Shown: one piece after another, positions 1,464-50,256 of the stretch
How positions within the stretch are numbered: the first letter of the stretch is position 1
Layout of the letters: each line of letters opens with the position of its first letter
NCBI GenBank assembly: GCA_001819815.1
Contig: MHNO01000009.1
Span: 71,734 to 135,733, forward strand
DNA from: Candidatus Ryanbacteria bacterium RIFCSPHIGHO2_02_FULL_45_17b
GTDB taxonomy: Bacteria; Patescibacteriota; Minisyncoccia; Ryanbacterales; 2-02-FULL-48-12
Reading direction: 5' to 3'
DNA length: 64,000 nucleotides
Translations under genes and position numbers: made by a program
The notes under the pieces: model-generated
What the model was told of the DNA's origin: nothing
Database searches by the model: none
Seen by the model: the letters and a program-made list of their open reading frames with translations, nothing else

Positions 1464-1565
1464 CTCCCTCCTGTAAGATCTGATTTAAACGTATACTAAC
1501 AAATAGAAAATTGCAATCAATAGTATCATGCGTTTGGCGACCTGACCGCCATTATAGACAACCGT

Positions 1566-1771
1566 GAATTACGAAACACACCCTCATCCGATGACCGCCA
1601 CACGAATTGATAATGAGTTGAACAAGATGTGTAACGTCTTGCGATGACCAAAATATGAAAAATAATAATAAAGAATTCAATATTGGGTCATCGCAAGACG
1701 TTATATTGTACTTGTGTATGCAAATTGATGGGAGGTCATCAGATGAGAGGAATACATGTGTTTCGTAATTC
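1566..1771. mobile_element. MITE-like inverted-repeat element, copy 1 (full length, with an internal 17-bp-stem hairpin)
   Basis: Terminal inverted repeats GAATTACGAAACACACCCTCATCCGATGACC ... GGTCATCAGATGAGAGGAATACATGTGTTTCGTAATTC. Internal perfect hairpin AACGTCTTGCGATGACC / GGTCATCGCAAGACGTT. Related copies lie at ~48700 and ~27116. The track ORF 1552..1773 lies inside it. Confidence 0.55.
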
Positions 1772-1944
1772 AAAGAGACAAGTAATTCTTAGACATGAAG
1801 AATCGTTTAGCGGAGAAGGTCGTATTGTTTTGTAACACTCAATACGCTACAATAGCCCTATGTACAAAAAGAAAAAAGTTGCGCGCCGAAAGCACGCAAA
1901 ACACAAAGGAAAACAAGTGCGGGTGGCGCACCGGTAAAGTTTCT

Positions 1945-18306: not shown

Positions 18307-18861
18307 ATGTCTCCTCAAAACTCAAAAAAAATTGTTACCAACCCAAACCCCGTTCTTCATAAACGGGCACTTGAGGTACCTATTGTTGAAATTACTTCCA
18401 AAAAAATCCAGCATATACTTGCGGATATGACGACGGCACTCCGCGGCACATCAGAAGGCATTGGCATTGCCGCGCCCCAAATCGGACATAGTTTGCAAAT
18501 CTTTCTTGCATCCGAAGAAGCCCTCCGGTGGGATGAGCTTGAAGACATGCCACGTGAAGATCGAAAGAAAAAACAATGGACGTATTATACATTTATAAAC
18601 CCTATCATAAGAAAAGCTTCAAAAAAGAAAACATCTGAAACAGAAGGATGTTTGAGCGTGCCTAAAACATATGGCACCGTGGAACGGTCAGAAAAAATTA
18701 CCGTAGAAGCGTATGATGAAACAGGTAAAAAGTTCCAGCGGGGCACCTCAAAATTATATGCCCGCGTCATGCAGCACGAAATAGATCACCTCAATGGCAT
18801 TTTGTTTATTGAAAAAGCAAAGAATATTAAGAACATACACGCTATAAAACCTGAAATATGA
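18307..18861 (+). CDS. def: peptide deformylase
   Basis: The three PDF motifs: GIGIAAPQIG, EGCLSVP, HEIDHLNG. Confidence 0.9.
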   Translation: MSPQNSKKIVTNPNPVLHKRALEVPIVEITSKKIQHILADMTTALRGTSEGIGIAAPQIGHSLQIFLASEEALRWDELEDMPREDRKKKQWTYYTFINPIIRKASKKKTSETEGCLSVPKTYGTVERSEKITVEAYDETGKKFQRGTSKLYARVMQHEIDHLNGILFIEKAKNIKNIHAIKPEI

Positions 18862-19847
18862 AGATAATCTTTTTCGGCACCCCTGATTTTGCTGTTACCA
18901 TTTTGAAAGCGTTGATAGACGCGCATATGTCGCCTATCGCGGTAGTAACAACTCCCGATAAACCCGCCGGACGCGGACATATCATTACAAGTCCGCCCGT
19001 AAAAACATTTGTAGAAAAATATACCATTCCTGTATTTCAACCAGAAAAACTCAAAGACGAAACTTTCTTGCATACATTGCAAAATCTCAACGCGGATGTC
19101 TTTGTTATCGCGTCTTATGGAAAAATTCTTCCCCAAAATCTTCTTGATATCCCACTCAAAGGAACTATAAATGTCCATCCATCACTGCTTCCGCGCCACC
19201 GCGGCCCATCACCCATCCAGAGCGCAATTCTCGCCGGAGATAGCACAACAGGCATAACGCTCATGCTCACAGACAAAGAGATGGATCATGGACCCATCAT
19301 TGCAACCTGTAGTTGGCACATTGCAGATAGCAATAGTACCTACGCCCAACTTCACGACAAGCTTGCTGAACTTGGTGGAGATTTGCTTGTAAAGACTTTA
19401 CCGAGATGGATTGCAGGAGAAATCACACCTCAAGAGCAACATCATCCGGAAGCAACCTATACAAAACTTCTTACAAAAGAAGACGGACACATTGATTGGA
19501 CTAAATCAGCAAAAGAAATAGACCGCATGGTGCGTGCTCTAAATCCATGGCCCGGCACTTGGTCTACACTTTCGGAGGCGAAACCTCCGATTTTTTCAAA
19601 AATCGGAGGTTTCGCCTCCGAAAGTGTTAAGCGGGTAAAAATTCTTGCCGGACATCCACTGGATGAAAAATCAACCGTGCCAGCCGGTACTATTCTCAAA
19701 ACAAAAAGCGGCCACCTTGCCGCTTGTACTAAAAATGGTCTCTATATGATCGAGATGTTGCAAGTGGAAGGAAAGAAAGCAACTCTTGGCACAAACCTCC
19801 TTAATGAACTGTCTCATTCTCAACAGGCACATCCACGCCTCTTGTAA
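18858..19847 (+). CDS. fmt: methionyl-tRNA formyltransferase (carries a 17-codon in-frame palindromic insertion)
   Basis: Formyl-transferase N-terminal domain (SLLPRHRGPSPIQ) and C-terminal domain. Overlaps def by 4 nt. Confidence 0.9.
   Translation: MKIIFFGTPDFAVTILKALIDAHMSPIAVVTTPDKPAGRGHIITSPPVKTFVEKYTIPVFQPEKLKDETFLHTLQNLNADVFVIASYGKILPQNLLDIPLKGTINVHPSLLPRHRGPSPIQSAILAGDSTTGITLMLTDKEMDHGPIIATCSWHIADSNSTYAQLHDKLAELGGDLLVKTLPRWIAGEITPQEQHHPEATYTKLLTKEDGHIDWTKSAKEIDRMVRALNPWPGTWSTLSEAKPPIFSKIGGFASESVKRVKILAGHPLDEKSTVPAGTILKTKSGHLAACTKNGLYMIEMLQVEGKKATLGTNLLNELSHSQQAHPRLL
19572..19622. repeat. 51-bp perfect palindromic element inserted in frame in fmt (copy 1)
   Basis: TCGGAGGCGAAACCTCCGATTTTTT C AAAAATCGGAGGTTTCGCCTCCGAA. 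The arms are reverse complements of each other. The element encodes SEAKPPIFSKIGGFASE. Confidence 0.7.
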
Positions 19848-22697: not shown

Positions 22698-23037
22698 TAT
22701 CTATTCCCGCTTTTATCTCAAGATATTTAACTCGAGCCATTAAATCCTCAAATTCATCTTTATACACCAAATTACCACGTATTTCCGCAACGTCGGCTTC
22801 TATTCTGCCTAAGCGGGCATCCATGTGATCCATGCGCCCATCAAAACGATCCATGCGCTCTTCAAAACGATCCATGCGCTCTTCAAAGTGATCCATACGA
22901 CCGTCTAATGTATCCATACGGTCGTCTAGCGTATCCATACGACCATCCAATCGTTTTATATCATCTTTCGTTGCTGTATTCTCAAAACCCTTCGCAATCA
23001 TACGCGCAAGTTCTTCATTTGTGACTTTTTTTACCAT
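22687..23037 (-). CDS. heptad-repeat protein (7 tandem copies of D/E-x-R-M-D-x-F/L)
   Basis: MVKKVTNEELARMIAKGFENTATKDDIKRL, then DGRMDTL DDRMDTL DGRMDHF EERMDRF EERMDRF DGRMDHM DARLGRI. Start at the internal ATG at 23037. Confidence 0.5.
   Translation of the reverse strand: MVKKVTNEELARMIAKGFENTATKDDIKRLDGRMDTLDDRMDTLDGRMDHFEERMDRFEERMDRFDGRMDHMDARLGRIEADVAEIRGNLVYKDEFEDLMARVKYLEIKAGIDSGK
22801..22947. repeat. 21-bp tandem direct repeat, 7 copies, inside the heptad-repeat gene
   Basis: ATCCATGCGCTCTTCAAAACG-type units repeated head to tail (plus strand). Confidence 0.7.
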
Positions 23038-23113
23038 GCCTCTAGTATACAAAACAGTTGATAAAACGCAAAATTCGGTTTCTGAACGTAGCGGTTGAAC
23101 CGCTACATAACTA

Positions 23114-24298
23114 TCAATAGGCTTCTTTCGTGTACACATTCTTTGGATCCCACACCATCCACGAGTCAAGCCTTGCATCATACGTTGCTTGTTTTTCTTT
23201 CCGAATCATATCTGCCGTGTAATCCGCGCCTAAATCAAAATCCTGAATCCATGGTCGTAGCTCGGCAATGTGCGCGCCATATAAAGGCGAAGTTGTGCTT
23301 GCAGTTAATACACGCATTGCCTCTAGACGCCGTTCTCCTTCTGACATGGCAAAATGAATAACCTCATAAGGATGTGCCGCAGGGTTTGAGAGACCATTCC
23401 ATCCATTGGGATAATGGGAAGGATATACCATGGGCGCAATATAGTCCGCATGAGGCGCTGCTTTTTCAAGCACTTGTCCAATGTTCAAGTCATCGGTATT
23501 TGTCATGGTCATACCAAATAAATCAAGGGAAATAGGAATGGGCAGTTTGCTAAGTTCAGTATCAAGATAGGCAAAAAAATTCTCAAGAACATCGCTCCGC
23601 GGCACAATGCCATCCCACACGGGAAACGCAATATTTTTCATATTACCATCAGATGGAAACCGCACATAATCAAAGTTGAGTTCATCAAACCCCACCGCTT
23701 CCGCGGCATGCGCAACCCGAATAATATACTTCCACATTTCCGTGGAGGCAGGATCAACCCATGTGATTCCTTTCCTATCTTTCCACACCGTTCCTTCTTT
23801 TGTGCGCACGGCAATCTCAGGCATTTTCGCAACAACATGCGGATCTTGAAAGACGCTAATACGCGCGATTGTGTAAATATCATTACGATGCAACTCCTCG
23901 ATAAAAGAACGCATATTCGGCACGCGTTCTTCTTCCGAGCCCATCTTCTCTATTATCGGATCGCCCGTGCGAAAAGAAACCTTGCCAGAATAATCTTTAA
24001 CATCAATAACAATTGCGTTGACTTCTGATGTTCGAACAAATTCTACAAGCGGTTCACGTATGGATGGAGTCCCCGCAACCCAACTTGACATATAAATGGC
24101 GCGAACGGCATCCGGCGTGGATATATGTTGGGGCGGCGGAGGTAAAACCGCTGTTGCTATAGTTGCGCTACCGTACTCGTCCGCAATGTATATCAGTGCT
24201 GTTCCTCTGTTCATTACCCAAACAAAAACAACCGCAATAACTACGACCGCGCTTCCCATTCCTGTAAAAATATATTTTTTTGAAAAAAAGCTTCTCAT
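23114..24298 (-). CDS. putative TIM-barrel glycoside-hydrolase-like protein (DUF4015-like), N-terminal TM helix
   Basis: Signal anchor, then a sequence consistent with a polysaccharide-hydrolase-like beta/alpha barrel. Family assignment tentative. Confidence 0.4.
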   Translation of the reverse strand: MRSFFSKKYIFTGMGSAVVVIAVVFVWVMNRGTALIYIADEYGSATIATAVLPPPPQHISTPDAVRAIYMSSWVAGTPSIREPLVEFVRTSEVNAIVIDVKDYSGKVSFRTGDPIIEKMGSEEERVPNMRSFIEELHRNDIYTIARISVFQDPHVVAKMPEIAVRTKEGTVWKDRKGITWVDPASTEMWKYIIRVAHAAEAVGFDELNFDYVRFPSDGNMKNIAFPVWDGIVPRSDVLENFFAYLDTELSKLPIPISLDLFGMTMTNTDDLNIGQVLEKAAPHADYIAPMVYPSHYPNGWNGLSNPAAHPYEVIHFAMSEGERRLEAMRVLTASTTSPLYGAHIAELRPWIQDFDLGADYTADMIRKEKQATYDARLDSWMVWDPKNVYTKEAY

Positions 24299-27115: not shown

Positions 27116-27150
27116 CCTCATCTGATGAGGATGTGTTTCGTGATTCAAAG
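27116..27150. repeat. remnant (joined inverted repeats) of the MITE-like family, copy 3
   Basis: CCTCATCTGATGAGG ATGTGTTTCGTGATTCAAAG matches the inverted-repeat core plus the right outer arm of copy 1. Confidence 0.4.
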
Positions 27151-31625: not shown

Positions 31626-33943
<2,318 letters not shown>

Positions 33944-33966
33944 AACTCTAAACTCTGAAAACTAAT

Positions 33967-34635
33967 TTATGAACCGATAATCTCTGATTTTAATTTTTTT
34001 GCCTCTTCCATAAAAAAAGTTCTCCATTCCCGCGGATCGATTTTTATAATCATGCGGGGAAAATCCTGCACACTCTCCGCTTTTATAAACTGTGTGCCAA
34101 GTTGCAAGGGATCAATATGCCAATCGAATTTTATCTTTGCTTTCTTCATTAATTCATCAATCACATAGTTTTTTTCACGGCAAATGAGATAAAGATCTAT
34201 ATAATCACGCGCAGTTGTTCTTTGATAGATAGTAAAAAGCTTATTGACAGCGATATCAAGAATACTGTCTACTGATACACTATACTCGATTCTTCCTGTT
34301 TCGATGCGTGGAAAAGGATAATACGTAAACTCTGTTTTCAATACCTCATTGCCGAAATGGATAAAAAAGATATTCCTGTTGAAGCTCTGCTGAAAATCGA
34401 TGCTATTGGCGGACACTTTTTTTTGAATCGTCCGCACTGCCACTTCAAGCGCTCCGACATCGTTTATTTCTTGTTCAGAAAAAAAATCAAGGTCTTCCGA
34501 ATAGCGATGCTTCAGGTAAAATGCCGCCAAGGGCGTGCCGCCTGTAAGATAAAAACGTTCTGTAAACAAGGGAGACTCGCCAATCGCGGTTAAAAAAGTA
34601 ATCTGATTCTTAGTGAGAATATCCATCGATATCAA
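33967..34635 (-). CDS. nucleotidyltransferase AbiEii/AbiGii toxin family protein (DUF1814)
   Basis: YLTGGTPLAAFYLKHRYSEDLDFF matches the family GGTAL..R.S.DLDF motif. Confidence 0.7.
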   Translation of the reverse strand: MISMDILTKNQITFLTAIGESPLFTERFYLTGGTPLAAFYLKHRYSEDLDFFSEQEINDVGALEVAVRTIQKKVSANSIDFQQSFNRNIFFIHFGNEVLKTEFTYYPFPRIETGRIEYSVSVDSILDIAVNKLFTIYQRTTARDYIDLYLICREKNYVIDELMKKAKIKFDWHIDPLQLGTQFIKAESVQDFPRMIIKIDPREWRTFFMEEAKKLKSEIIGS

Positions 34636-34822
34636 GAGCCAATTCTAAATATCTTTTTCGTGGAGGATCGAGATGAAGCGTATCCCAGTATTTTCGCAAT
34701 TGAGCCTCGTTGATTTTCTCGCCGTTCAACCCAAAATTAATCAATTGCTCAAGCCGCCACTTTTCGTGCCCTTCCGGGTCCGATATTTCAAACGATTGTT
34801 CGTCTACAGACCAATTGTACAT
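34610..34822 (-). CDS. small protein overlapping the AbiEii start (possible cognate partner, not a recognisable AbiEi)
   Basis: 70-aa ORF overlapping the next gene by 26 nt. Role inferred from arrangement only. Confidence 0.3.
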   Translation of the reverse strand: MYNWSVDEQSFEISDPEGHEKWRLEQLINFGLNGEKINEAQLRKYWDTLHLDPPRKRYLELALDIDGYSH

Positions 34823-35024
34823 GCTCCCATACTAGCATGTTTCGCTTAATTTTTCCAGCTTTTCGCCTTCGTAATCTGCTCGCCTCGCCAAAGCTTCAGC
34901 AAGGACGGGTCCGATGTTCCTTACGCTCTTGATGCGTCACCACCAAGGAATCAGTAAAAAAAACAAAGCTAGTATCAGATAAAATCCGATCATAATATTT
35001 TCCAATATGTTGTTTTTTTTTGCA

Positions 35025-35696
35025 TTAATCCTTAATTATGGCAATATTTTTTAAGTTTACTATGGAAATTCCGTTCTTCGTTACTGAACCATATCCATGC
35101 AACTTAAACTCCAAGACGCCCACCTTTGCTCTAATATGTGCTATAGGTACTTCTACAGGCAGATACTCGTTCCTGCTAGATACATCTCCACGGAATGTAA
35201 ACAAGAGAGTGTCCTCGAAAGATATGGTTAACCAATCCCCATCTCCCGGTTCTAGAAAATTCATGTCGAACATCAAAAGATCTGCATTTGGATGTATTTG
35301 TATATCAGTTCTTATTCCACTCTCATCTCCCGTTTGAAGAGTCGACAATAGTAAATCCCCTTCAACAGAAGCAACTGGTTTTAATGCTTCAGAAGAAGAA
35401 AAGCTTCTCCATACTATCTTATTTGAGCTCTGATCCTGTGGTTCAGTAGGTTGCTTTGAATTACTAGTCTCTAGAGGTTTTGTATTTGTTTCATCATCGG
35501 CATCTGCCATCATTCCATTATTTTTCTCCTCCATCACATCTTTCATTTGCTCTGCCATGTCAATCGCGGATGTTTCTTCGGTTGTGGGAATAAATTTATC
35601 TTTTATCGGCAACTGTATCTTGAAAACGCCGATGCCTAAAATGGCAATAATGCCGACTACAATGAGAATACCTATAAGACCGAATCCTTTTTGCAT
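35025..35696 (-). CDS. prepilin-type N-terminal domain protein (pilin-like), variant 1
   Basis: MQKGFGLIGILIVVGIIAILGIGVF is a class III (type IV pilin-like) signal, divergent at +5 (Gly instead of Glu). The first ~55 aa are near-identical to the 36600..37649 protein. Confidence 0.6.
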   Translation of the reverse strand: MQKGFGLIGILIVVGIIAILGIGVFKIQLPIKDKFIPTTEETSAIDMAEQMKDVMEEKNNGMMADADDETNTKPLETSNSKQPTEPQDQSSNKIVWRSFSSSEALKPVASVEGDLLLSTLQTGDESGIRTDIQIHPNADLLMFDMNFLEPGDGDWLTISFEDTLLFTFRGDVSSRNEYLPVEVPIAHIRAKVGVLEFKLHGYGSVTKNGISIVNLKNIAIIKD

Positions 35697-35705
35697 GGTA
35701 TGTAA

Positions 35706-36095
35706 TTAGTTTTTAATCTTATCCAATACGAACTCTTTGATGTGTGTTGCAACTTCAAACGCTTTTTGGGCATCTTCCCGGCTAAATTCTATATAATCAT
35801 CCGCGTAACGCGTTTCTGTATAAAACTGATCCAAAAATACTGCGTCTTCATTTAATTGTTCAAATGAATTATCAATAGCAACGCATGCCTTTAGTAAGTT
35901 TTCAATAGCGTGAATCTTACGAACATTCTTTTTGTTATATGCAAGAAACCCTTTGAAATACTTTTCTGCCACTTGTTGCGCGTGAAAACAGATGGTATTT
36001 GGCACGCCATGTTCTTTAAGAAGAATTTCAATGGTTCCCATGTCGTCCTCACCACGCAAAAACCAATCATTTACATATTTAGATATCTCGCTCAT
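35706..36095 (-). CDS. HEPN domain protein (PF05168-type), partner of the adjacent MNT
   Basis: FHAQQVAEKYFKGFL ... HAIENLL ... FYTETRYADDY matches the HEPN consensus. 4-nt overlap with the MNT gene. Confidence 0.75.
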   Translation of the reverse strand: MSEISKYVNDWFLRGEDDMGTIEILLKEHGVPNTICFHAQQVAEKYFKGFLAYNKKNVRKIHAIENLLKACVAIDNSFEQLNEDAVFLDQFYTETRYADDYIEFSREDAQKAFEVATHIKEFVLDKIKN

Positions 36096-36469
36096 GCCGC
36101 CACAAGCTCAGCCGGTTCATGTAACAAAGAAATATGAAAGCCGGGATTCGTATAAAGCGCCTTTCCATTATGCACAATATCTTCGAGAAAAAGATTCCTG
36201 CTTTTATTGATACTCTCTTCTAATTCACGAGGTGTATAGACAAGAACATCTATCGGAACATCGGAAGGATACATCATACTCAAAACATCTCGCTGCCGTT
36301 CGATACGTGGCTTGTTACTTTCCATAACAACGAGTAAATCTATATCGCTATCTTCGTGTGGCTTTCCCCAAGCCCAAGAACCAAAGAGAATTATTTTTTC
36401 CGGCTGATACTCACGAACGATTTTATCCTTTATTCCATTGATTTTTTCCTCAATAACCGTTTTTTCCAT
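36092..36469 (-). CDS. minimal nucleotidyltransferase (MNT) domain protein
   Basis: ILFGSWAWGKPHEDSDIDLLVV is the Pol-beta-type GS...DxD motif. Confidence 0.8.
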   Translation of the reverse strand: MEKTVIEEKINGIKDKIVREYQPEKIILFGSWAWGKPHEDSDIDLLVVMESNKPRIERQRDVLSMMYPSDVPIDVLVYTPRELEESINKSRNLFLEDIVHNGKALYTNPGFHISLLHEPAELVAA

Positions 36470-36489
36470 ATGAGAATACTATGCTATTT

Positions 36490-36582
36490 TTATCCCAAAA
36501 GAGCAAGTTCCACAACCTTTGTTATCTGCCCGATATTTTTGACACTTCGGAGCCGTTGTTTGATTGTTTGGAGAGATTGCAT
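36490..36582 (-). repeat. direct-repeat copy of the atpG 5' end (copy B), fused into a 30-codon ORF
   Basis: ~83 bp, near-identical to atpG codons 1-27 (MQSLQTIKQRLRSVKNIGQITK) starting exactly at the ATG. The sequence upstream of the ATG is unrelated. Confidence 0.8.
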
Positions 36583-36599
36583 AAATTTACACGTAACTC

Positions 36600-37649
36600 C
36601 TATAAGGAGATCCTCATAAGAGTGCCGTCTGTATATAAAAGAGCGAAACTTGGAAAATAAATAAATTGATGCCAGCCACTTGCAACCCCATCCCACTTTA
36701 GAGCTTCATTTAATCTTGCTCTGAAATCGGAAAAAAGATAATTTCCAAAATTTTCTTTAACTAGACGGCTTGCTGTCTGCCGAACATACCAGCTATAAGT
36801 GTCTGTGCCTGCCTTGAATCCAAAATCAGAGTCTTTGGGTCGATTTGTTTCTATAAATGAGTCACTTTTTTTATCCCATACATACCACTTACCACTTGCA
36901 AAAGCTTCAGGCACAATATGGAATCCCAACCCCCGGGTACCTGGAAATTCTATGTATTCAGTCGTTGTATACACATGCGTGCCGTCGGTCAAAAATTGCC
37001 CCAAACCCTCACTACTATTGTGTTTTATAGAATAGAGTTTCATATTTTTTATATCAAACCGATACACGCCTAAAATACTTGGCTCAGAATACATTTCTCC
37101 TGATTCAGCAGCACCTATAAAGAAGTTTCCTTGGAAATAAACGGCATCAAATTGTTGAAATGCTTCTCTTTTGGGCAACTCGGGTATCTGTATGAGCTGG
37201 AAAGAAAATGTATTTGTATCAAGAAGGTACAAATCTCTACCTACCGCAAGTAATGCCGTATGATCATTATCCCCTGCAAGAACAAGAACTTGCTGTTCTG
37301 AAGACCACGCATTGGGAACCGCGAGAAAACCGGGTGCTTCAGTTCGTGCCCTCCCACCCAACCATTTTTCAGAAGGATCAGATAACATGAACTTAACAAG
37401 ATTATTTCCTGCAACAGAAGGTACATCGGTAACGTCATCAGTACCAACCGCCTGACTATTTTTCTCCTCCATTACGTCTTTCATCTGCTCTGCCATGTCA
37501 ATCGCAGATTTTTCTTCGTTCGTCGGAGTAAATTTATCTTTTATCGGCAACTGTATCTTGAAAACACCGATGCCTAAAATAGCGATAATACCGACTACAA
37601 TGAGTATTCCGATAAGACCGAATCCTTTTTGCATGGTATATTTTTGCAT
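36600..37649 (-). CDS. prepilin-type N-terminal domain protein (pilin-like), variant 2 with a different C-terminal domain
   Basis: Same N-terminal ~55 aa as variant 1 (the start may be the internal MQKGFGL). C-terminal 290 aa unrelated to variant 1. Confidence 0.6.
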   Translation of the reverse strand: MQKYTMQKGFGLIGILIVVGIIAILGIGVFKIQLPIKDKFTPTNEEKSAIDMAEQMKDVMEEKNSQAVGTDDVTDVPSVAGNNLVKFMLSDPSEKWLGGRARTEAPGFLAVPNAWSSEQQVLVLAGDNDHTALLAVGRDLYLLDTNTFSFQLIQIPELPKREAFQQFDAVYFQGNFFIGAAESGEMYSEPSILGVYRFDIKNMKLYSIKHNSSEGLGQFLTDGTHVYTTTEYIEFPGTRGLGFHIVPEAFASGKWYVWDKKSDSFIETNRPKDSDFGFKAGTDTYSWYVRQTASRLVKENFGNYLFSDFRARLNEALKWDGVASGWHQFIYFPSFALLYTDGTLMRISL

Positions 37650-37678
37650 GTGTTTATATTACCTTTGATAGAATAATT

Positions 37679-38149
37679 TTATTCATCTGAGGATACGGTA
37701 AAAATTGTCTTTTGCACATCGCGGGCATGCGGCGTATTACTACCAAGAAGCGCGCTTTGACGCATCGCTTCTTCAAAAATAACTGTATGGGTATCAAAAA
37801 TGCCTTCTCGCCCAAGTACACGCGGAGCATTCTCACTGTTGAGAAATGCAACAGGTAATCGGAAAGCGTATGATCCCATTTTTACTGGAATTTCGTGACG
37901 CCAAGCGCGAATGCTCTTCCCATCTATGCCAAATATACGCAAGAGCTTTCCTTTTGTAAGATCAATACCAAGAAGAGGCGCAATATTCTTCGGCAGTGCA
38001 GAAATGGTCGCCCCGGAATCAATCAACATCATTACAGGCAATTCTTCCTTTTGCGCGGTATGTAAGACAACCCTCGCCGCGGGGAAAATTGCGATCTGTC
38101 CCGATACTTCCATTGTTATCCCATATGGAAATCGAATGGAGTTAGACAT
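37679..38149 (-). CDS. retropepsin-like (clan AA) aspartic protease
   Basis: MMLIDSGATISALP contains the D-S-G-A catalytic motif in a hydrophobic context. Size ~150 aa, typical of single-lobe retropepsins. Confidence 0.6.
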   Translation of the reverse strand: MSNSIRFPYGITMEVSGQIAIFPAARVVLHTAQKEELPVMMLIDSGATISALPKNIAPLLGIDLTKGKLLRIFGIDGKSIRAWRHEIPVKMGSYAFRLPVAFLNSENAPRVLGREGIFDTHTVIFEEAMRQSALLGSNTPHARDVQKTIFTVSSDE

Positions 38150-38348
38150 GGTAAATGACCATTAAACTCTCCGGGACACGCAGAAATGTTACCTCCCGAA
38201 GCGGTTGCGCCGGCATTTTTTTCTTTAGAATTTTTATGACATCAGGAAGTGATTTGCCCGCAAAAATAACTTTACCATTCAAAATGGCGACCTCTTTACC
38301 GCCATACTTTTTTATGTCTATAGTGGGAATCTTTAATTTCATATTCAT
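38142..38348 (-). CDS. small protein (DUF5678-like) co-encoded with the retropepsin-like protease
   Basis: 68 aa, KKYGGKEVAILNGKVIFAGKSL. Overlaps the protease gene start by 8 nt. Family call tentative. Confidence 0.4.
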   Translation of the reverse strand: MNMKLKIPTIDIKKYGGKEVAILNGKVIFAGKSLPDVIKILKKKMPAQPLREVTFLRVPESLMVIYHV

Positions 38349-38589
38349 ATCATCATCTCTTACTCCTAAAGAGATTATTCTTCGCTTTTCCTATGTCTGT
38401 TTCACTAATCTGCACCCTTTTCCCAATGCCCTTAAGCGAAACAGGAGCTGTCGAAAATTGTTTTGATCCTTTTTTCAATTTCAAAAGTTCCTTTTCTAAC
38501 CCCCCCCAATTTTTCCACATATGTAGTTGTAGAATTTGCCATTGTAGTCATAAGCCCATAGTATGCTTTTCTCACATAGTTTTCAAGTA

Positions 38590-38674
38590 TCACTACCAAT
38601 TCCATGGCTTTTGTTATCTGCCCAATATTTTTGACACTTCGGAGCCGATGTTTAATTGTTTGAAGGGATTGCAT
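38590..38674 (-). repeat. direct-repeat copy of the atpG 5' end (copy C), fused to 53 unrelated codons
   Basis: ~85 bp matching atpG from the ATG through MELV (codon 27). ORF 38432..38674 then diverges. Confidence 0.8.
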
Positions 38675-38714
38675 AATATTTGATTGTTAGGTACTGAAAT
38701 CTAGAAACTAGAAA

Positions 38715-39344
38715 TTAGTTGATGAACTTGAAAGTAGAGAGGATAGTTTGTATCAGCCTTTCCTGCTCTGGATATTCTAAAAAACCCTGATGAGCTCTTA
38801 TTGCTTCGTGACGCGCAGATGAACTATGGGCAAAGTAAATAAAACCGTTATTGTTCGGCTCTTCTAGATAGTAATTTGTAAGAATATCATATTCGTCATA
38901 ATTAATTTTAGAAGTCTTAAATATATTTGATCCAATAGCTAAATCACTTAATGGAGCTGATGTTCCACTCATCGGCCTCTTTGTATGTGGCATTATTACC
39001 ATACGTAAATTATAAATCTTAGCCGCATCTTTATTTATTCTATAAACAGGACTTGCTGTGTCATAAACTATATAATTTGACACGGCGATAAAAGACGAGC
39101 CGTCTTCCAAAACAAACCCCGCGGGATACCTCACCTCAAACCCATACTTCTCATTCCGATATGTTTTCCAGTTTTGTATTTTATCCTGATTATTTGTAGC
39201 AAATTCTAATCTTACATCATTCCATGGGGTATGATTATACCGATAGATTAAATAACCAAGAAAGCTTACAGCTACGACAACAATGACGCAAGATACAATA
39301 AAAATAACACGCAAATATTTATTCATAACACATTTTAGTCCCAC
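38715..39344 (-). CDS. hypothetical membrane-anchored protein
   Basis: N-terminal TM helix (VIFIVSCVIVVVAVSFLGYLIY), then a ~170-aa soluble domain. Confidence 0.4.
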   Translation of the reverse strand: MGLKCVMNKYLRVIFIVSCVIVVVAVSFLGYLIYRYNHTPWNDVRLEFATNNQDKIQNWKTYRNEKYGFEVRYPAGFVLEDGSSFIAVSNYIVYDTASPVYRINKDAAKIYNLRMVIMPHTKRPMSGTSAPLSDLAIGSNIFKTSKINYDEYDILTNYYLEEPNNNGFIYFAHSSSARHEAIRAHQGFLEYPEQERLIQTILSTFKFIN

Positions 39345-39361
39345 AATTCCACATTCTAGAT

Positions 39362-46033: not shown

Positions 46034-47749
46034 ATGAAAAAAAATTCTTGGCTTCTCCCAGTAATACTATTGACCGCTAGTGTACTTCGTTTATGGTCAC
46101 TCGGTAGCGGTGATACGCTTTCCGATGAAGTACTATACTCATTCCGCGCCATCGGCATGCTCGATTTTGATGAAGCGGCAGAACAAACAACGCCCCTTGA
46201 ATGGTTCGACCCACACATACCCTCATGGACAAAATTTTCTTTTCACGACCACCCGCCATTTGTATTTGCCGTACAACATATATCCATGCGCATGTTCGGA
46301 GAAACGCCGTTCGCATTTCGTCTGCCATCGGCACTTTTAGGAATTGCCTCCCTATACTTGCTGTATCGAATAGGATCTTTATTGTATGGAGAACGCGCGG
46401 GACTTCTTGCGGCGGCTCTCATGGGCGTAACAACAAACCATGTCGCAATCTCACGCCTCGGTTTACAGGAATCATACGTAATCTTTTTTATTCTTCTTGC
46501 CACCTATTTTTTTCTAAAAGCCGAAAAACAAAAAAAGTATTATATTCTCGTAGGCATCGTACTGGGATTCGCAATGCTTACTAAATACACGAGCGGAATT
46601 CTTATCCCTGTGTTTCTGACATATATGCTCCTCTTTCGGAGAAATGATTTTTTTTCACGTTTTGTGTACATAGGCGTACTGTGCGCTTTTCTTCTTTTTT
46701 CACCCGTTTTCTATTACAATTTTAGACTCTATCAAGCAGTCGGGCATTTTGATTTCCAACTTTCTTATATACTAGGACAAAACCCGGAAGTGTGGAGTGT
46801 GCAACCCGGCAAAGAAGAGTTTCCCACACTCGTGAGCCGTGCAAGAGCATTCTTTCCAAACATAATGCATTTTAATTCATGGCTCTTCTTGTCTCTTGTC
46901 ACAATCAGTATTGGCGCATGTGTTATTTCTCTCAAAAAGAATATGAAAGAAGTAGCACGAATGCATGCTTTTCTTTTCATAACACTCATCTGGCTTCTTT
47001 TTCTTATCATTGGCATCATTGGTCCCTCTCTGCGATTCTTGGCAATGCTTACACCATTTATGATACTTGTGACAGTCAGTGTATTACAGATACTAGCGGA
47101 GGCGAAACCTCCGAATTATACTTATATTCGGAGGTTTCGCCTCCGATATATTATTGGAATATTACTTCTGTTTGAAATCCTCTACTCTGCCAACTCTCAA
47201 TTGCTTCCGTACCCCAAAGGTCCGGAGTTTTGGGCATGGTCCCCCGTGCGCTATGAAAATTATCATCGGGGGTATGAAGAACTTGATTTGTGGATGCGTA
47301 AACAAACAGATGACCGCATGCCCGCGCTCGCGTTCGAACCTACATATAATTTCATAGGAGAAATCCATAAACAATCACTCGCCACCGACGAACGCGCTGG
47401 TAAAAAACCCCTCTCAACACTTTTTGTATATGATAAAAACATAAACAGCATTGCCCAGCTCTGGATACTGGACCGCCTGCAAGTGTACCATGCCTGGCCC
47501 ATCATACCCGCTGACACCTACATAAAATTTCTAAATGAAAAAGGGGCAGATTATTTTAAAAAAGCTGGATTCGCTGAAATATATTATATCTTTCCGACAG
47601 AAAACGTTCCGTGGAAAAAGGAACAATACCTCACCAACATTGGCATGAAGTTAGAACAAACCTTGACGAAAAGTGGTCTTGTACTATACACTGTACTTGA
47701 AAACAAACGCTCCGAACCCGTGTTTCGAATTTATAAGATGGAGATATAA
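46034..47749 (+). CDS. GT39/ArnT-like polyprenol-phosphate-sugar dependent glycosyltransferase (carries an in-frame palindromic insertion)
   Basis: About 11 TM helices, the conserved DE/DT loop after TM1 (LSDEV), and a C-terminal soluble domain. Adjacent to the GT2 synthase. Confidence 0.8.
   Translation: MKKNSWLLPVILLTASVLRLWSLGSGDTLSDEVLYSFRAIGMLDFDEAAEQTTPLEWFDPHIPSWTKFSFHDHPPFVFAVQHISMRMFGETPFAFRLPSALLGIASLYLLYRIGSLLYGERAGLLAAALMGVTTNHVAISRLGLQESYVIFFILLATYFFLKAEKQKKYYILVGIVLGFAMLTKYTSGILIPVFLTYMLLFRRNDFFSRFVYIGVLCAFLLFSPVFYYNFRLYQAVGHFDFQLSYILGQNPEVWSVQPGKEEFPTLVSRARAFFPNIMHFNSWLFLSLVTISIGACVISLKKNMKEVARMHAFLFITLIWLLFLIIGIIGPSLRFLAMLTPFMILVTVSVLQILAEAKPPNYTYIRRFRLRYIIGILLLFEILYSANSQLLPYPKGPEFWAWSPVRYENYHRGYEELDLWMRKQTDDRMPALAFEPTYNFIGEIHKQSLATDERAGKKPLSTLFVYDKNINSIAQLWILDRLQVYHAWPIIPADTYIKFLNEKGADYFKKAGFAEIYYIFPTENVPWKKEQYLTNIGMKLEQTLTKSGLVLYTVLENKRSEPVFRIYKMEI
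47096..47146. repeat. 51-bp palindromic element inserted in frame in the GT39 gene (copy 2)
   Basis: CGGAGGCGAAACCTCCGAAT TATACTTAT ATTCGGAGGTTTCGCCTCCG has the same arms as the fmt copy with a different centre. It encodes AEAKPPNYTYIRRFRLR. Confidence 0.7.
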
Positions 47750-48226: not shown

Positions 48227-48682
48227 TTAGCGCTCTTTTTTTTCGTACGTCCCCATAATCTTTGCGTCTGCCACTATATGCCCTTCCATTGCTTCTATTA
48301 CGTCCTTCGCGCCCGATGCTAAAGGAATGCTCAACATCGTATCGAGCGCGTAGAGTTTGAAAAAGTAGCGGTGCACGCCACTTGGTGGGCATGGACCGTG
48401 ATAAGAATGAGCGCGATTTGTTTTTCCTTGGGCGGCGCCTTCGGGCACCGACCCCTCCGTAATTTCGCGCGTGTCAGGACGGATATTCCAAACCACCCAG
48501 TGCACCCACGTGCCGCCAGGCGCGTCAGGGTCATCCACAATTAACACCAAACTTTTCGCGTTCTGGTCTACATCACTTATGGAAAGGGGTGGGTTTATTC
48601 CACGCGTTAGCGGATTCGCATCACAGGTATATTTTTTTGGGATGGGATCAGTATTTTTAAATGCGGAACTTAGTATATGCAT
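48227..48682 (-). CDS. YbhB/YbcL-family (PEBP/RKIP-like) protein
   Basis: DPDAPGGTWVHWVVWNI ... YHGPCPPSGVHRYFFKLYAL. Start at MHILSSAF, since the longer ORF extension runs into the MITE copy. Confidence 0.8.
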   Translation of the reverse strand: MHILSSAFKNTDPIPKKYTCDANPLTRGINPPLSISDVDQNAKSLVLIVDDPDAPGGTWVHWVVWNIRPDTREITEGSVPEGAAQGKTNRAHSYHGPCPPSGVHRYFFKLYALDTMLSIPLASGAKDVIEAMEGHIVADAKIMGTYEKKER

Positions 48683-48699
48683 GGTTTTTATAATACTTT

Positions 48700-48820
48700 G
48701 AATTACGAAACACATTCTCATCTGATGACCGCCCCGCGAATTGATAGCGAGTCGAACGAGATATGTTAAAAAATGAAGGTACTTGCGTGTGCAAATTGAG
48801 GGGAGGTCATCAGATGAGGG
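48700..48820. mobile_element. MITE-like element, copy 2 (lacks the internal hairpin and the outer right arm)
   Basis: GAATTACGAAACACATTCTCATCTGATGACCGCC ... GGGAGGTCATCAGATGAGGG. Lies between the pepA stop and the PEBP start. Confidence 0.5.
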
Positions 48821-48837
48821 TATGTATGTATAGACAA

Positions 48838-50256
48838 TCAAAAATCCTCAACTATTTTTAAAAGCAAGCGCACAGGCACGCCAACGGCTCCTTTTGCTAA
48901 ATACTCCCCTTCAATACTTGTCATACGCGGCGCCATATCAATATGTACCCACGGACATGCTAAATCTTTTGCAAAAGCGTGCAAAAACTTCGCGGCAGTA
49001 ATGGCTCCTCCGTAACGAGTTTTGCCTACGTTCGCAATATCGCCAAACGTTCCTTTTATCTCTTCATCATATTCTTCCCATAAAGGCAACGGCCATACAT
49101 AATCCCCTGATTCTTCACCCCATACACGGAGCTTATGCTCCAAGGTTTCATCCTCGGTAAAAATTGCAGAACACCGCTGTCCCAACGCCGCCATAGCAGC
49201 ACCCGTAAGAGTCGCTACATCCACCACGAGTCTTGGTTTATAGCGTTTTGCGTATGTAATGGCATCAGCAAGAATAATGCGCCCTTCCGCATCCGTATTC
49301 AAAACTTCAATAGTACGGCCGGAAAGCGATTGTAACACATCTCCCGGATGATAACTTGAACCCGATGGCATGTTTTCGACTGCCGGCACGAGCCCGATAA
49401 TATTTCGTTTAATACCGAGCCGCGCCGCAAGCGCAACGGCATGAATTACCGCCGCACCCCCCGACATATCCATATGCATTTCATAAATAGCATCAGATGG
49501 TTTTAAATTGAGACCACCCGTATCAAACGTAACACCTTTTCCTACCATTACTACCGGCTTTTCATTTGACGTCCCTCCACGGTATTCAAGAATAATAAAC
49601 TGCGGTTTTTCGTCCGATCCGCAAGATACCCCGAGAATACCGCCCATGCCAACTTTTTTTATTTCGCGCTCACCCAGAACCGTGATTTTCACAGGCAACC
49701 CGCGCACTGCATTACGCGCGGCACCAGCAAGGAGAGCGGGCGTCATATCGCCACCCGGCGTATTTGCGAGCGAACGGCATGCGTTTATTTCTTTTGCAAT
49801 TACCTGCCCGCGCAAAAATGCTTTTTGGACAGTTTTTGTTTTGCATCCTGTCACAAATACATCCCGAAGAAACTTCCAGCCTTCTTTCGGTTCCGACTTG
49901 TATACAACGAACTCAAAATTCGCGAGCTCCATATGCGTGGAAATCAACTCCGCTAACTCTTCTTCTTTCAAATGAAGATGGGAATCCCCCAACTGGCGGA
50001 ATAAATCTGCAACGTCTATATGCACGCGTTCTATATGGTGCGCTTTTACAACACTTACAATTTTGCGCGCCAATAACACCAGCTTGCGCCGCGTAATATC
50101 TTTCATTTCGCCGCCCGCGCCAACCTCAAGCACACCCAAACCGTCTTCGCGAATAAGCAAAGATTCTTTTGCGTGCGCTAACCGAATGCGTGCGACATCC
50201 GGATCAAGCGCTTTTTTTGCGCCGGTTTCGAAATGAAATGTTATGGGTTTCAACAT
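48838..50256 (-). CDS. pepA: leucyl aminopeptidase (M17 family)
   Basis: NTDAEGRIILADAITYA and the metal-ligand region GKGVTFDTGG. Start at MLKPITF. Confidence 0.9.
   Translation of the reverse strand: MLKPITFHFETGAKKALDPDVARIRLAHAKESLLIREDGLGVLEVGAGGEMKDITRRKLVLLARKIVSVVKAHHIERVHIDVADLFRQLGDSHLHLKEEELAELISTHMELANFEFVVYKSEPKEGWKFLRDVFVTGCKTKTVQKAFLRGQVIAKEINACRSLANTPGGDMTPALLAGAARNAVRGLPVKITVLGEREIKKVGMGGILGVSCGSDEKPQFIILEYRGGTSNEKPVVMVGKGVTFDTGGLNLKPSDAIYEMHMDMSGGAAVIHAVALAARLGIKRNIIGLVPAVENMPSGSSYHPGDVLQSLSGRTIEVLNTDAEGRIILADAITYAKRYKPRLVVDVATLTGAAMAALGQRCSAIFTEDETLEHKLRVWGEESGDYVWPLPLWEEYDEEIKGTFGDIANVGKTRYGGAITAAKFLHAFAKDLACPWVHIDMAPRMTSIEGEYLAKGAVGVPVRLLLKIVEDF

Follow-up and report, generated by a model that had tools for sequence, protein, structure and literature searches.

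Three inverted-repeat elements in the window (the whole 64,000-nt stretch of Candidatus Ryanbacteria DNA analyzed here) very probably represent a family of MITEs, non-coding DNA transposons of 143-214 bp with imperfect terminal inverted repeats of ~35-45 bp that share the core CTCATC-N-GATGACC. Members of this family occupy many unrelated sites, carry inverted repeats at their ends, and are flanked by target-site duplications. Some are identical to one another, all are strictly intergenic, and a syntenic relative has no spacer at the position where one of the window copies lies. An earlier reading of this DNA, made from the sequence only, had left the choice between a MITE-like non-autonomous transposon family and a structured regulatory RNA motif placed at the 5' side of genes. 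The first of these is upheld by the number of insertion sites, the duplications, the conserved inverted repeats, and the occurrence of identical copies at different loci.

All three repeat sites were found where the sequence-only reading had placed them, and their intergenic location was likewise borne out (Table 1). Copy 1 is structurally intact, and copies 2 and 3, the former having lost one arm and the latter consisting of one arm only, are decayed. The limits originally given for copy 1 (1566-1771) captured a real element that in fact reaches 4 nt further on each side; its internal hairpin has a perfect stem, as described, with arms measured at 18 nt (1632-1649 and 1686-1703) instead of the 17 bp claimed. 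Copy 2 lies between the stop codon of an M17 aminopeptidase gene (48838-48840) and the start of a PEBP gene (48682) and is 97.8% identical over 135 nt to a complete copy at another locus (L023:12802-12952). The two features said to be missing from this copy, the internal hairpin and the outer right arm, are indeed absent; we rejected the presence of a decayed outer right arm, as the sequence past 48822 aligned to intact arms with a score no better than that of shuffles. Because this arm is missing, copy 2 is presumably immobile. Copy 3 is 92% complementary to the copy 2 arm, and a solo arm resembling it is found at L020:3206-3231.

The outer arm, TTGAATTACGAAACACA, has four matches in the window at one mismatch or fewer (1564-1580, + strand; 1757-1773, - strand; 27132-27148, - strand; 48698-48714, + strand). 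Shuffled sequences are expected to give 0.34 matches at up to three mismatches, and none of 100 shuffles reached four. The core CTCATCNGATGASS occurs at eight window positions versus 0.14 expected. Copies 1 and 2 have in common a block of 81 nt (80% identity) and another of 40 nt (93% identity), and their predicted fold energies are -89.4 kcal/mol (z = -11.8) and -43.9 kcal/mol (z = -5.8), respectively.

Table 1. Positions of the three probable MITE copies in the window and of the component parts of copy 1.
Feature	Position	Strand	Sequence or type	Remarks
Copy 1	1562..1775		Complete 214-bp element, long-loop central hairpin variant	Both arms intact, duplication-flanked
Left target-site duplication, copy 1	1556..1561		AGACAA	Hexamer abuts element end
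Right target-site duplication, copy 1	1776..1781		AGACAA	Hexamer abuts element end
Left terminal inverted repeat ("short" arm), copy 1	1562..1596	+	CCGT-GAATTACGAAACACA-CC-CTCATCCGATGACC	
Right terminal inverted repeat ("long" arm), copy 1	1734..1775	-	CTTT-GAATTACGAAACACA-TGTATTCCT-CTCATCTGATGACC	Minus-strand reading
Optional central hairpin module, copy 1	1632..1703		TAACGTCTTGCGATGACC, 36-nt AT-rich loop, GGTCATCGCAAGACGTTA	
Copy 2	48696..48822		Hairpin-less variant	Left arm intact (48696-48730), outer right arm absent
Copy 3	27116..27150		Perfect palindrome CCTCATCTGATGAGG, then outer arm ATGTGTTTCGTGATTCAAAG (ATGTGTTTCGTGATTC), tip AAAG	Single-arm remnant

A transposon family should, by the earlier account, have further copies elsewhere, and a pattern scan of public metagenomes turned up ~20 additional sites with unrelated flanks. 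The pattern CGAAACACA-N(2-10)-CTCATCNGATGA was run against species-representative genomes, viral contigs, and metagenome contigs. The metagenome contigs yielded 26 loci (22 real copies and 4 chance matches), and the real copies derive exclusively from Rifle aquifer samples, the same place from which the source MAG was sampled. The Candidatus Ryanbacteria phylum was itself first introduced by a study of the Rifle aquifer (PMC5079060). With the three window copies included, we count 23 distinct insertion sites with unrelated flanks, a figure that pools the window with Rifle contigs from one field site and is not a per-genome count. It was obtained by merging loci with shared flanks, splitting one group that was joined solely by a chimeric contig, and taking in one divergent copy reached through its ORF. 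Several metagenome contigs bear two to four copies apiece. The species-representative genomes gave four pattern matches that showed no similarity beyond the pattern; this is close to the chance estimate for 21 fixed bases, and we therefore regard the family as absent from that collection. No match was obtained in the scan of viral contigs or in BLAST searches of plasmid and phage collections with the element as query. Seven contigs end inside a copy (L009, L010, L012, L017, L021, L030, and L032), and in the chimeric contig L018 the left flank of window copy 1 has been fused to the right flank of a different copy. Contig breaks and false joins of this kind are a typical effect of dispersed repeats on short-read assemblies.

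Seventeen full copies (copy 1 and 16 others) align end to end, and the alignment confirms the conserved terminal inverted repeats noted from the window. The inverted repeats of full copies end C-N-N-T-GAATTACGAAACACA. Each arm consists of a 4-nt tip (CTTT at one end of the element; C-Y-R-T, usually CCGT or CCAT, at the opposite end) followed by GAATTACGAAACACA and then the near-palindromic core. The long arm exceeds the short arm by 7 nt, as it does in copy 1, where the shorter arm is the left one. Across the 17 copies the arms are invariant or nearly so, with the predicted arm pairs kept in 12-17 of the sequences. The segment of the long arm that the short arm lacks is a different one in the L015/L033 subfamily; short arms are therefore independent deletion derivatives of the long arm and not products of compensatory evolution.

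Element lengths of 143, 150/151, 161/163, 184, 193, and 214 bp reflect whether the central hairpin is present, how long its loop is, and whether 21 nt have been deleted. The hairpin is missing in the 143/150/151-bp variants and short-looped in those of 161-184 bp. It is also found alone, at L034:1061-1141 and, adjoining the L023 copy, at L023:12957-13003, and we therefore consider it a separable palindromic module. Neither solo hairpin has a clear flanking duplication. Simple nested insertion of the hairpin was rejected, since the junctions do not fit a clean insertion into the hairpin-less form; one copy (L014) looks like a hairpin deletion between two CAAGA repeats. Another copy (L035) shares its 143-nt interior with L013 and L020, but its two 4-nt tips have changed places. 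Judging from these sequences, the exchange would most simply be explained by an inversion of the interior through recombination within the 15-nt identical part of the arms.

Target-site duplications had been named as a feature that would separate a MITE from an RNA motif, and most copies are flanked by exact duplications of 5-7 bp. With the duplication boundary set in every copy 4 nt outside GAATTA, exact 7-bp direct repeats flank 6 of 16 full copies (GACATTA, AAAGATA, TACATTT, TAGCAGA, TTTGTTA, and TATCTTA), exact 6-bp repeats flank three (window copy 1 among them), and exact 5-bp repeats flank two. The flanks of one further copy agree at six of seven positions, and the remaining 4 of the 16 have no duplication. 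The 17th copy, L048, is bracketed by TATATGA. Exact duplications of 5 bp or longer are therefore present at 12 of 17 copies, with 7 bp the commonest length; when left and right flanks were drawn from different copies (240 pairs), 1.25% reached at least 5 bp. The stagger is not firmly fixed, because the length of the duplication varies from 5 to 7 bp and four of the 16 copies show none. Terminal inverted repeats combined with duplications of variable sequence are the hallmark of cut-and-insert transposition in which the target is cut with a stagger. Two copies, L013 and L020, are 100% identical over 151 nt and lie at different loci within different duplications, which shows recent movement.

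We envisage that a transposase supplied in trans by an autonomous element would bind both arms, cut the target with a stagger of perhaps ~7 bp, and insert the element, and that repair of the stagger would then give rise to the direct duplications of 5-7 bp. The mobilizing enzyme would probably be a DDE-type transposase. Insertions would survive in AT-rich DNA between genes, often directly at a stop or start codon that the duplication may preserve. No autonomous partner is present in the ~472 kb made up by the window and the other loci, in which every arm is joined to the same short interior. The sole transposase near any copy belongs to an IS3-family insertion sequence (L048:527-1718), which we rejected as the parent element because its ends (TGTACTGCGCCCCAT.../...ATGGGGCGCTTG) are unrelated to those of the MITEs and its duplication is 5 bp. 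The 2.8 kb between the L020 copy and the solo arm on the same contig were also considered as a parent insertion sequence and were rejected, as they hold ordinary genes (for example, for a cysteine-desulfurase-like enzyme and an ArsR-type regulator).

The IS3-family insertion sequence is of some interest in its own right. It encodes HTH_Tnp_1 and rve ORFs and is flanked by a ~5-bp duplication, CAAAC. Because it is present in some Rifle assemblies of the locus and not in others (L048 versus L049), it is polymorphic and presumably active in the community.

Of 18 copies, not one falls within an ORF of at least 90 aa. Four of them are located between convergent genes, five begin 4-8 nt past a stop codon, and copies occur as often in these settings as they do upstream of genes. 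Relative to co-directional neighbor genes, the element has the same orientation in 10 cases and the opposite in 4; this difference is not significant, and an orientation bias was rejected. The genes that flank the copies are functionally unrelated. Several duplications have TAA or TAG at their beginning or ATG within them and so coincide in part with, or directly adjoin, a stop or start codon of the neighboring gene, the clearest case being the TATATGA of L048, which carries the start codon of the downstream gene.

An empty-site picture for copy 2 is provided by a syntenic relative, and not by a member of the same population. In Parcubacteria Gr01-1014_29 (L041), the gene order is that of the window (DHHA1, DUF5671, M17 peptidase, PEBP, PMT, GT2), the PEBP proteins are 69% identical, and the stop codon of the M17 peptidase gene overlaps the PEBP start (ATGA) with no spacer. 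The corresponding spacer in the window is 155 nt long, and most of it is copy 2. We found no filled and empty pair that is polymorphic within one population. In a further relative (L039/L040), whose PEBP is 74% identical, the M17-PEBP junction holds a hypothetical gene and a HicA/HicB toxin-antitoxin pair, and the junction seems to be a recurrent insertion spot.

Two ORFs in the window, 1552..1773 (- strand) and the N-terminal extension of 48227..48841 (- strand), cross copies of the element and had been called spurious. One frame, which is read in the direction from long arm to short arm, remains open in nearly every copy; it is the only open frame of the element and would specify a Cys/His-rich peptide of 48-70 aa. 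A profile of this frame matched a single cluster of 55-aa proteins among 5.8 billion proteins, and this relative is another copy of the element, L048, situated between a NUDIX gene and a DUF5654 gene. The same search revealed no fusion proteins carrying the peptide. As the only match is a stand-alone 55-aa ORF that is itself an element copy, we conclude that in-gene fusions of the Rickettsia type are lacking, we reject the frame as a real protein or as an in-gene peptide akin to those of Rickettsia palindromic elements (RPEs), and we find the verdict of spurious ORFs to be sound. ORFs within MITEs have been noted before (PMC10969869, section 4.2).

The open frame and the position of the copies raise the question of whether elements that are MITEs in origin are retained for a role of their hairpin in the host, for example in stabilizing mRNA 3' ends, in termination behind stop codons, or in translation across the element between coupled genes. 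Such a role is compatible with the MITE interpretation. Consistent with it are the five copies that start shortly after a stop codon and two instances in which the frame is tied to neighboring genes: in L048 the duplicated start codon opens the frame, whose end overlaps the downstream gene by ATGA, and in window copy 2 the beginning of the frame overlaps the M17 stop (TTGA) and the frame continues into PEBP without a shift. However, a scan detected no terminator-like sites inside the elements, and no T-run follows the hairpin. The frame of one copy (L027) contains two stops, and length differences between variants are multiples of 3 in only about half of cases. Moreover, the copies share recent ancestry, so that a common open frame is weak evidence for selection; for this reason, and given the stops in L027, we treat the frame as unproven. 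Overall, we consider retention for a host role unlikely.

We likewise give little credence to a more elaborate version of the transposon interpretation, in which the family would be a currently or very recently active MITE of candidate-phyla-radiation (CPR) bacteria, mobilized by an unrecognized transposase family. The failure to find a partner or similar ends would fit such an enzyme. Selection would then have favored both the flipping of the interior relative to the tips, as suggested by L035 versus L013/L020, and a frame that lets ribosomes read through between coupled genes, as suggested by L048.

The alternative raised at the outset, a structured cis-regulatory RNA (riboswitch-like or an attenuator) in the 5' leader of downstream genes, had some appeal in that the three window copies are all upstream of minus-strand genes and the element folds very stably. 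Across the larger set of copies, however, the position is not fixed upstream: four copies sit between convergent genes and others directly after stop codons, both orientations relative to genes occur, and the flanking genes share no function. Compensatory changes, which the sequence-only reading had proposed as the mark of an RNA motif, are negligible. RNAalifold returned a single long hairpin with a covariation term of -0.37 kcal/mol and a compensatory double change in 1 of 38 pairs, a result that is in itself uninformative because the copies are too similar. In the window, no Rfam family reaches its gathering score, and at E = 10 or better only generic hairpin models of plant and animal miRNAs touch the central hairpin. 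Promoter-like matches in the elements are at background. Target-site duplications, finally, are not expected of an RNA motif, and taken together these observations make a cis-regulatory RNA very improbable.

We regard as equally improbable an origin as REPIN/REP or IS200/IS605-type elements, which would have been moved in single-stranded form by a Y1 (RAYT/TnpA) transposase recognizing the CTCATC-N-GATGAG hairpin. Each arm does contain a small palindrome, the elements are inverted doublets, and single arms exist (window copy 3 and L020:3206-3231). However, REPINs and IS200/IS605 elements insert without target-site duplication, unlike the 12 copies here with an exact duplication of at least 5 bp. 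The arms are also true terminal inverted repeats, of 35-45 bp, and no Y1 transposase (PF01797-type) is present among the annotated genes of L005-L012 and L039-L053.

A hammerhead-type self-cleaving ribozyme, suggested by the core strings CUGAUGA and CGAAAC, which are no more than 30 nt apart in the long arm, is refuted at the sequence level, where the strings are coincidental and the reading has next to no chance of being correct: ribozyme models, hammerhead ones included, yield no match at E = 10 or better, the core U is replaced by C (CCGATGA) in most short and some long arms, the strings are too close for the required helices, and the predicted fold is one long hairpin with no three-way junction.

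With these alternatives weighed, the MITE interpretation can be set beside known systems. Prokaryotic MITEs are defined by their size, inverted and direct repeats, AT-rich intergenic sites, and stable stem-loop transcripts (PMC10969869, section 2.1). The element shows every defining feature that was tested except for a matching autonomous partner, of which none was found in ~472 kb. Like other prokaryotic MITEs, which are non-autonomous elements derived from insertion sequences (PMC10969869, PMC3184786), it is shorter than 500 bp, has no transposase gene, is present in multiple copies and length variants, combines terminal inverted repeats with flanking direct repeats, resides at AT-rich intergenic sites, and has a stable stem-loop transcript, which here is predicted. 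It differs in the length of its inverted repeats (~35-45 bp, versus the 4-30 bp quoted as typical) and in its host, a CPR bacterium. Our literature search found no description of MITEs in CPR bacteria. We appear to be dealing with an ordinary kind of element in a group where such elements have hardly been described, and its biology is itself ordinary.

Among named families, the Correia elements of Neisseria (CREE/NEMIS) are similar in being intergenic elements of 100-160 bp with terminal inverted repeats and length variants that arise by internal deletion. Correia elements are often co-transcribed with neighboring genes as hairpins; they have repeats of ~26 bp and duplicate TA, whereas the duplications seen here are 5-7 bp long and vary in sequence, and the two families have no similarity in sequence. 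REPINs, too, are found strictly outside genes, as singlets and as inverted doublets whose fold is a long hairpin. They differ in having no target-site duplication and in their association with RAYT; duplications are present here, and no RAYT was seen at the loci examined. RPEs resemble the family in their length of ~150 bp, their palindromic character, their occurrence in a small genome of the host-dependent type, and the ORF that runs through the element. However, most RPEs are in-frame insertions within protein-coding genes (PMC10969869, section 4.2), whereas all 18 copies here are intergenic and no host protein carries the peptide.

CPR genomes are ~1 Mb in size and gene-dense and are thought to be poor in mobile DNA. 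The presence of at least 23 insertion sites across the Rifle contigs and the window, together with copies that are 100% identical, points to active transposition in such a genome. Several breaks in the public Rifle assemblies, along with one chimeric join, are accounted for by the family. It also exposes ORF calls as spurious, among them an N-terminal extension wrongly given to the PEBP gene, and it marks places where operons of overlapping genes were split. Its value is thus descriptive for the CPR group and practical for annotation and assembly; by itself it poses no new biological question.

In addition to the MITEs, we found an assortment of other repeats and a gene island in the window and its relatives. 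A second, unrelated palindromic element occurs in coding regions, at 19566-19627 (within the fmt ORF, 18858..19847, + strand), at 47092-47148 (within the ORF of a PMT-family glycosyltransferase, 46034..47749, + strand), and at L041:4336-4400. At each site, it consists of two inverted copies of a 17-nt hairpin, CGGAGG-CGAAA-CCTCCG, which has four exact copies in the window versus zero expected. Where the palindrome lies in fmt, the encoded protein has an insertion of 16 aa when compared with E. coli Fmt (1FMT). In the PMT ortholog of L041, a different double hairpin (CGGAAGT-CCC-ACTTCCG) of the same length occupies the same position, which indicates that the palindromic structure was kept while the sequence changed. 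This second element resembles in-frame palindromes found in Rickettsia. The PMT gene of L041 has an extra 19-aa in-frame segment, IPLYPPFLKGETPPFEKGGLGG, encoded by the palindromic AAAAAAAATCCCCC...GGGAGGGATTTTTT (L041:4530-4610). This segment is absent from the PMT gene of the window and constitutes another in-gene palindromic insertion in the lineage.

The F-type ATP synthase operon contains an island of ~5.4 kb between the genes for the alpha and gamma subunits (window ~33860-39350). It contains a set of paralogous genes with no known function as well as AbiEii-like and retropepsin-like genes and an NTP_transf_2/HEPN pair, and it also encloses an 80-aa fragment with a match to the gamma subunit. 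The island is bounded by three direct repeats of an 82-nt segment (33864-33945, 36503-36584, and 38595-38676). A 983-aa surface-type protein is encoded between the genes for the beta and epsilon subunits of the same enzyme. Elsewhere in the window, a tandem array of 147 nt (22806-22952) is made up of ~7 units of the 21-nt sequence GATCCATGCGCYCTTCAAAAC, and a short hairpin, ACGTAGCGGTTGAACCGCTACGT, occurs at two distant intergenic places (23086-23117 and 33616-33648) and may represent either a terminator common to both or one more small repeat.
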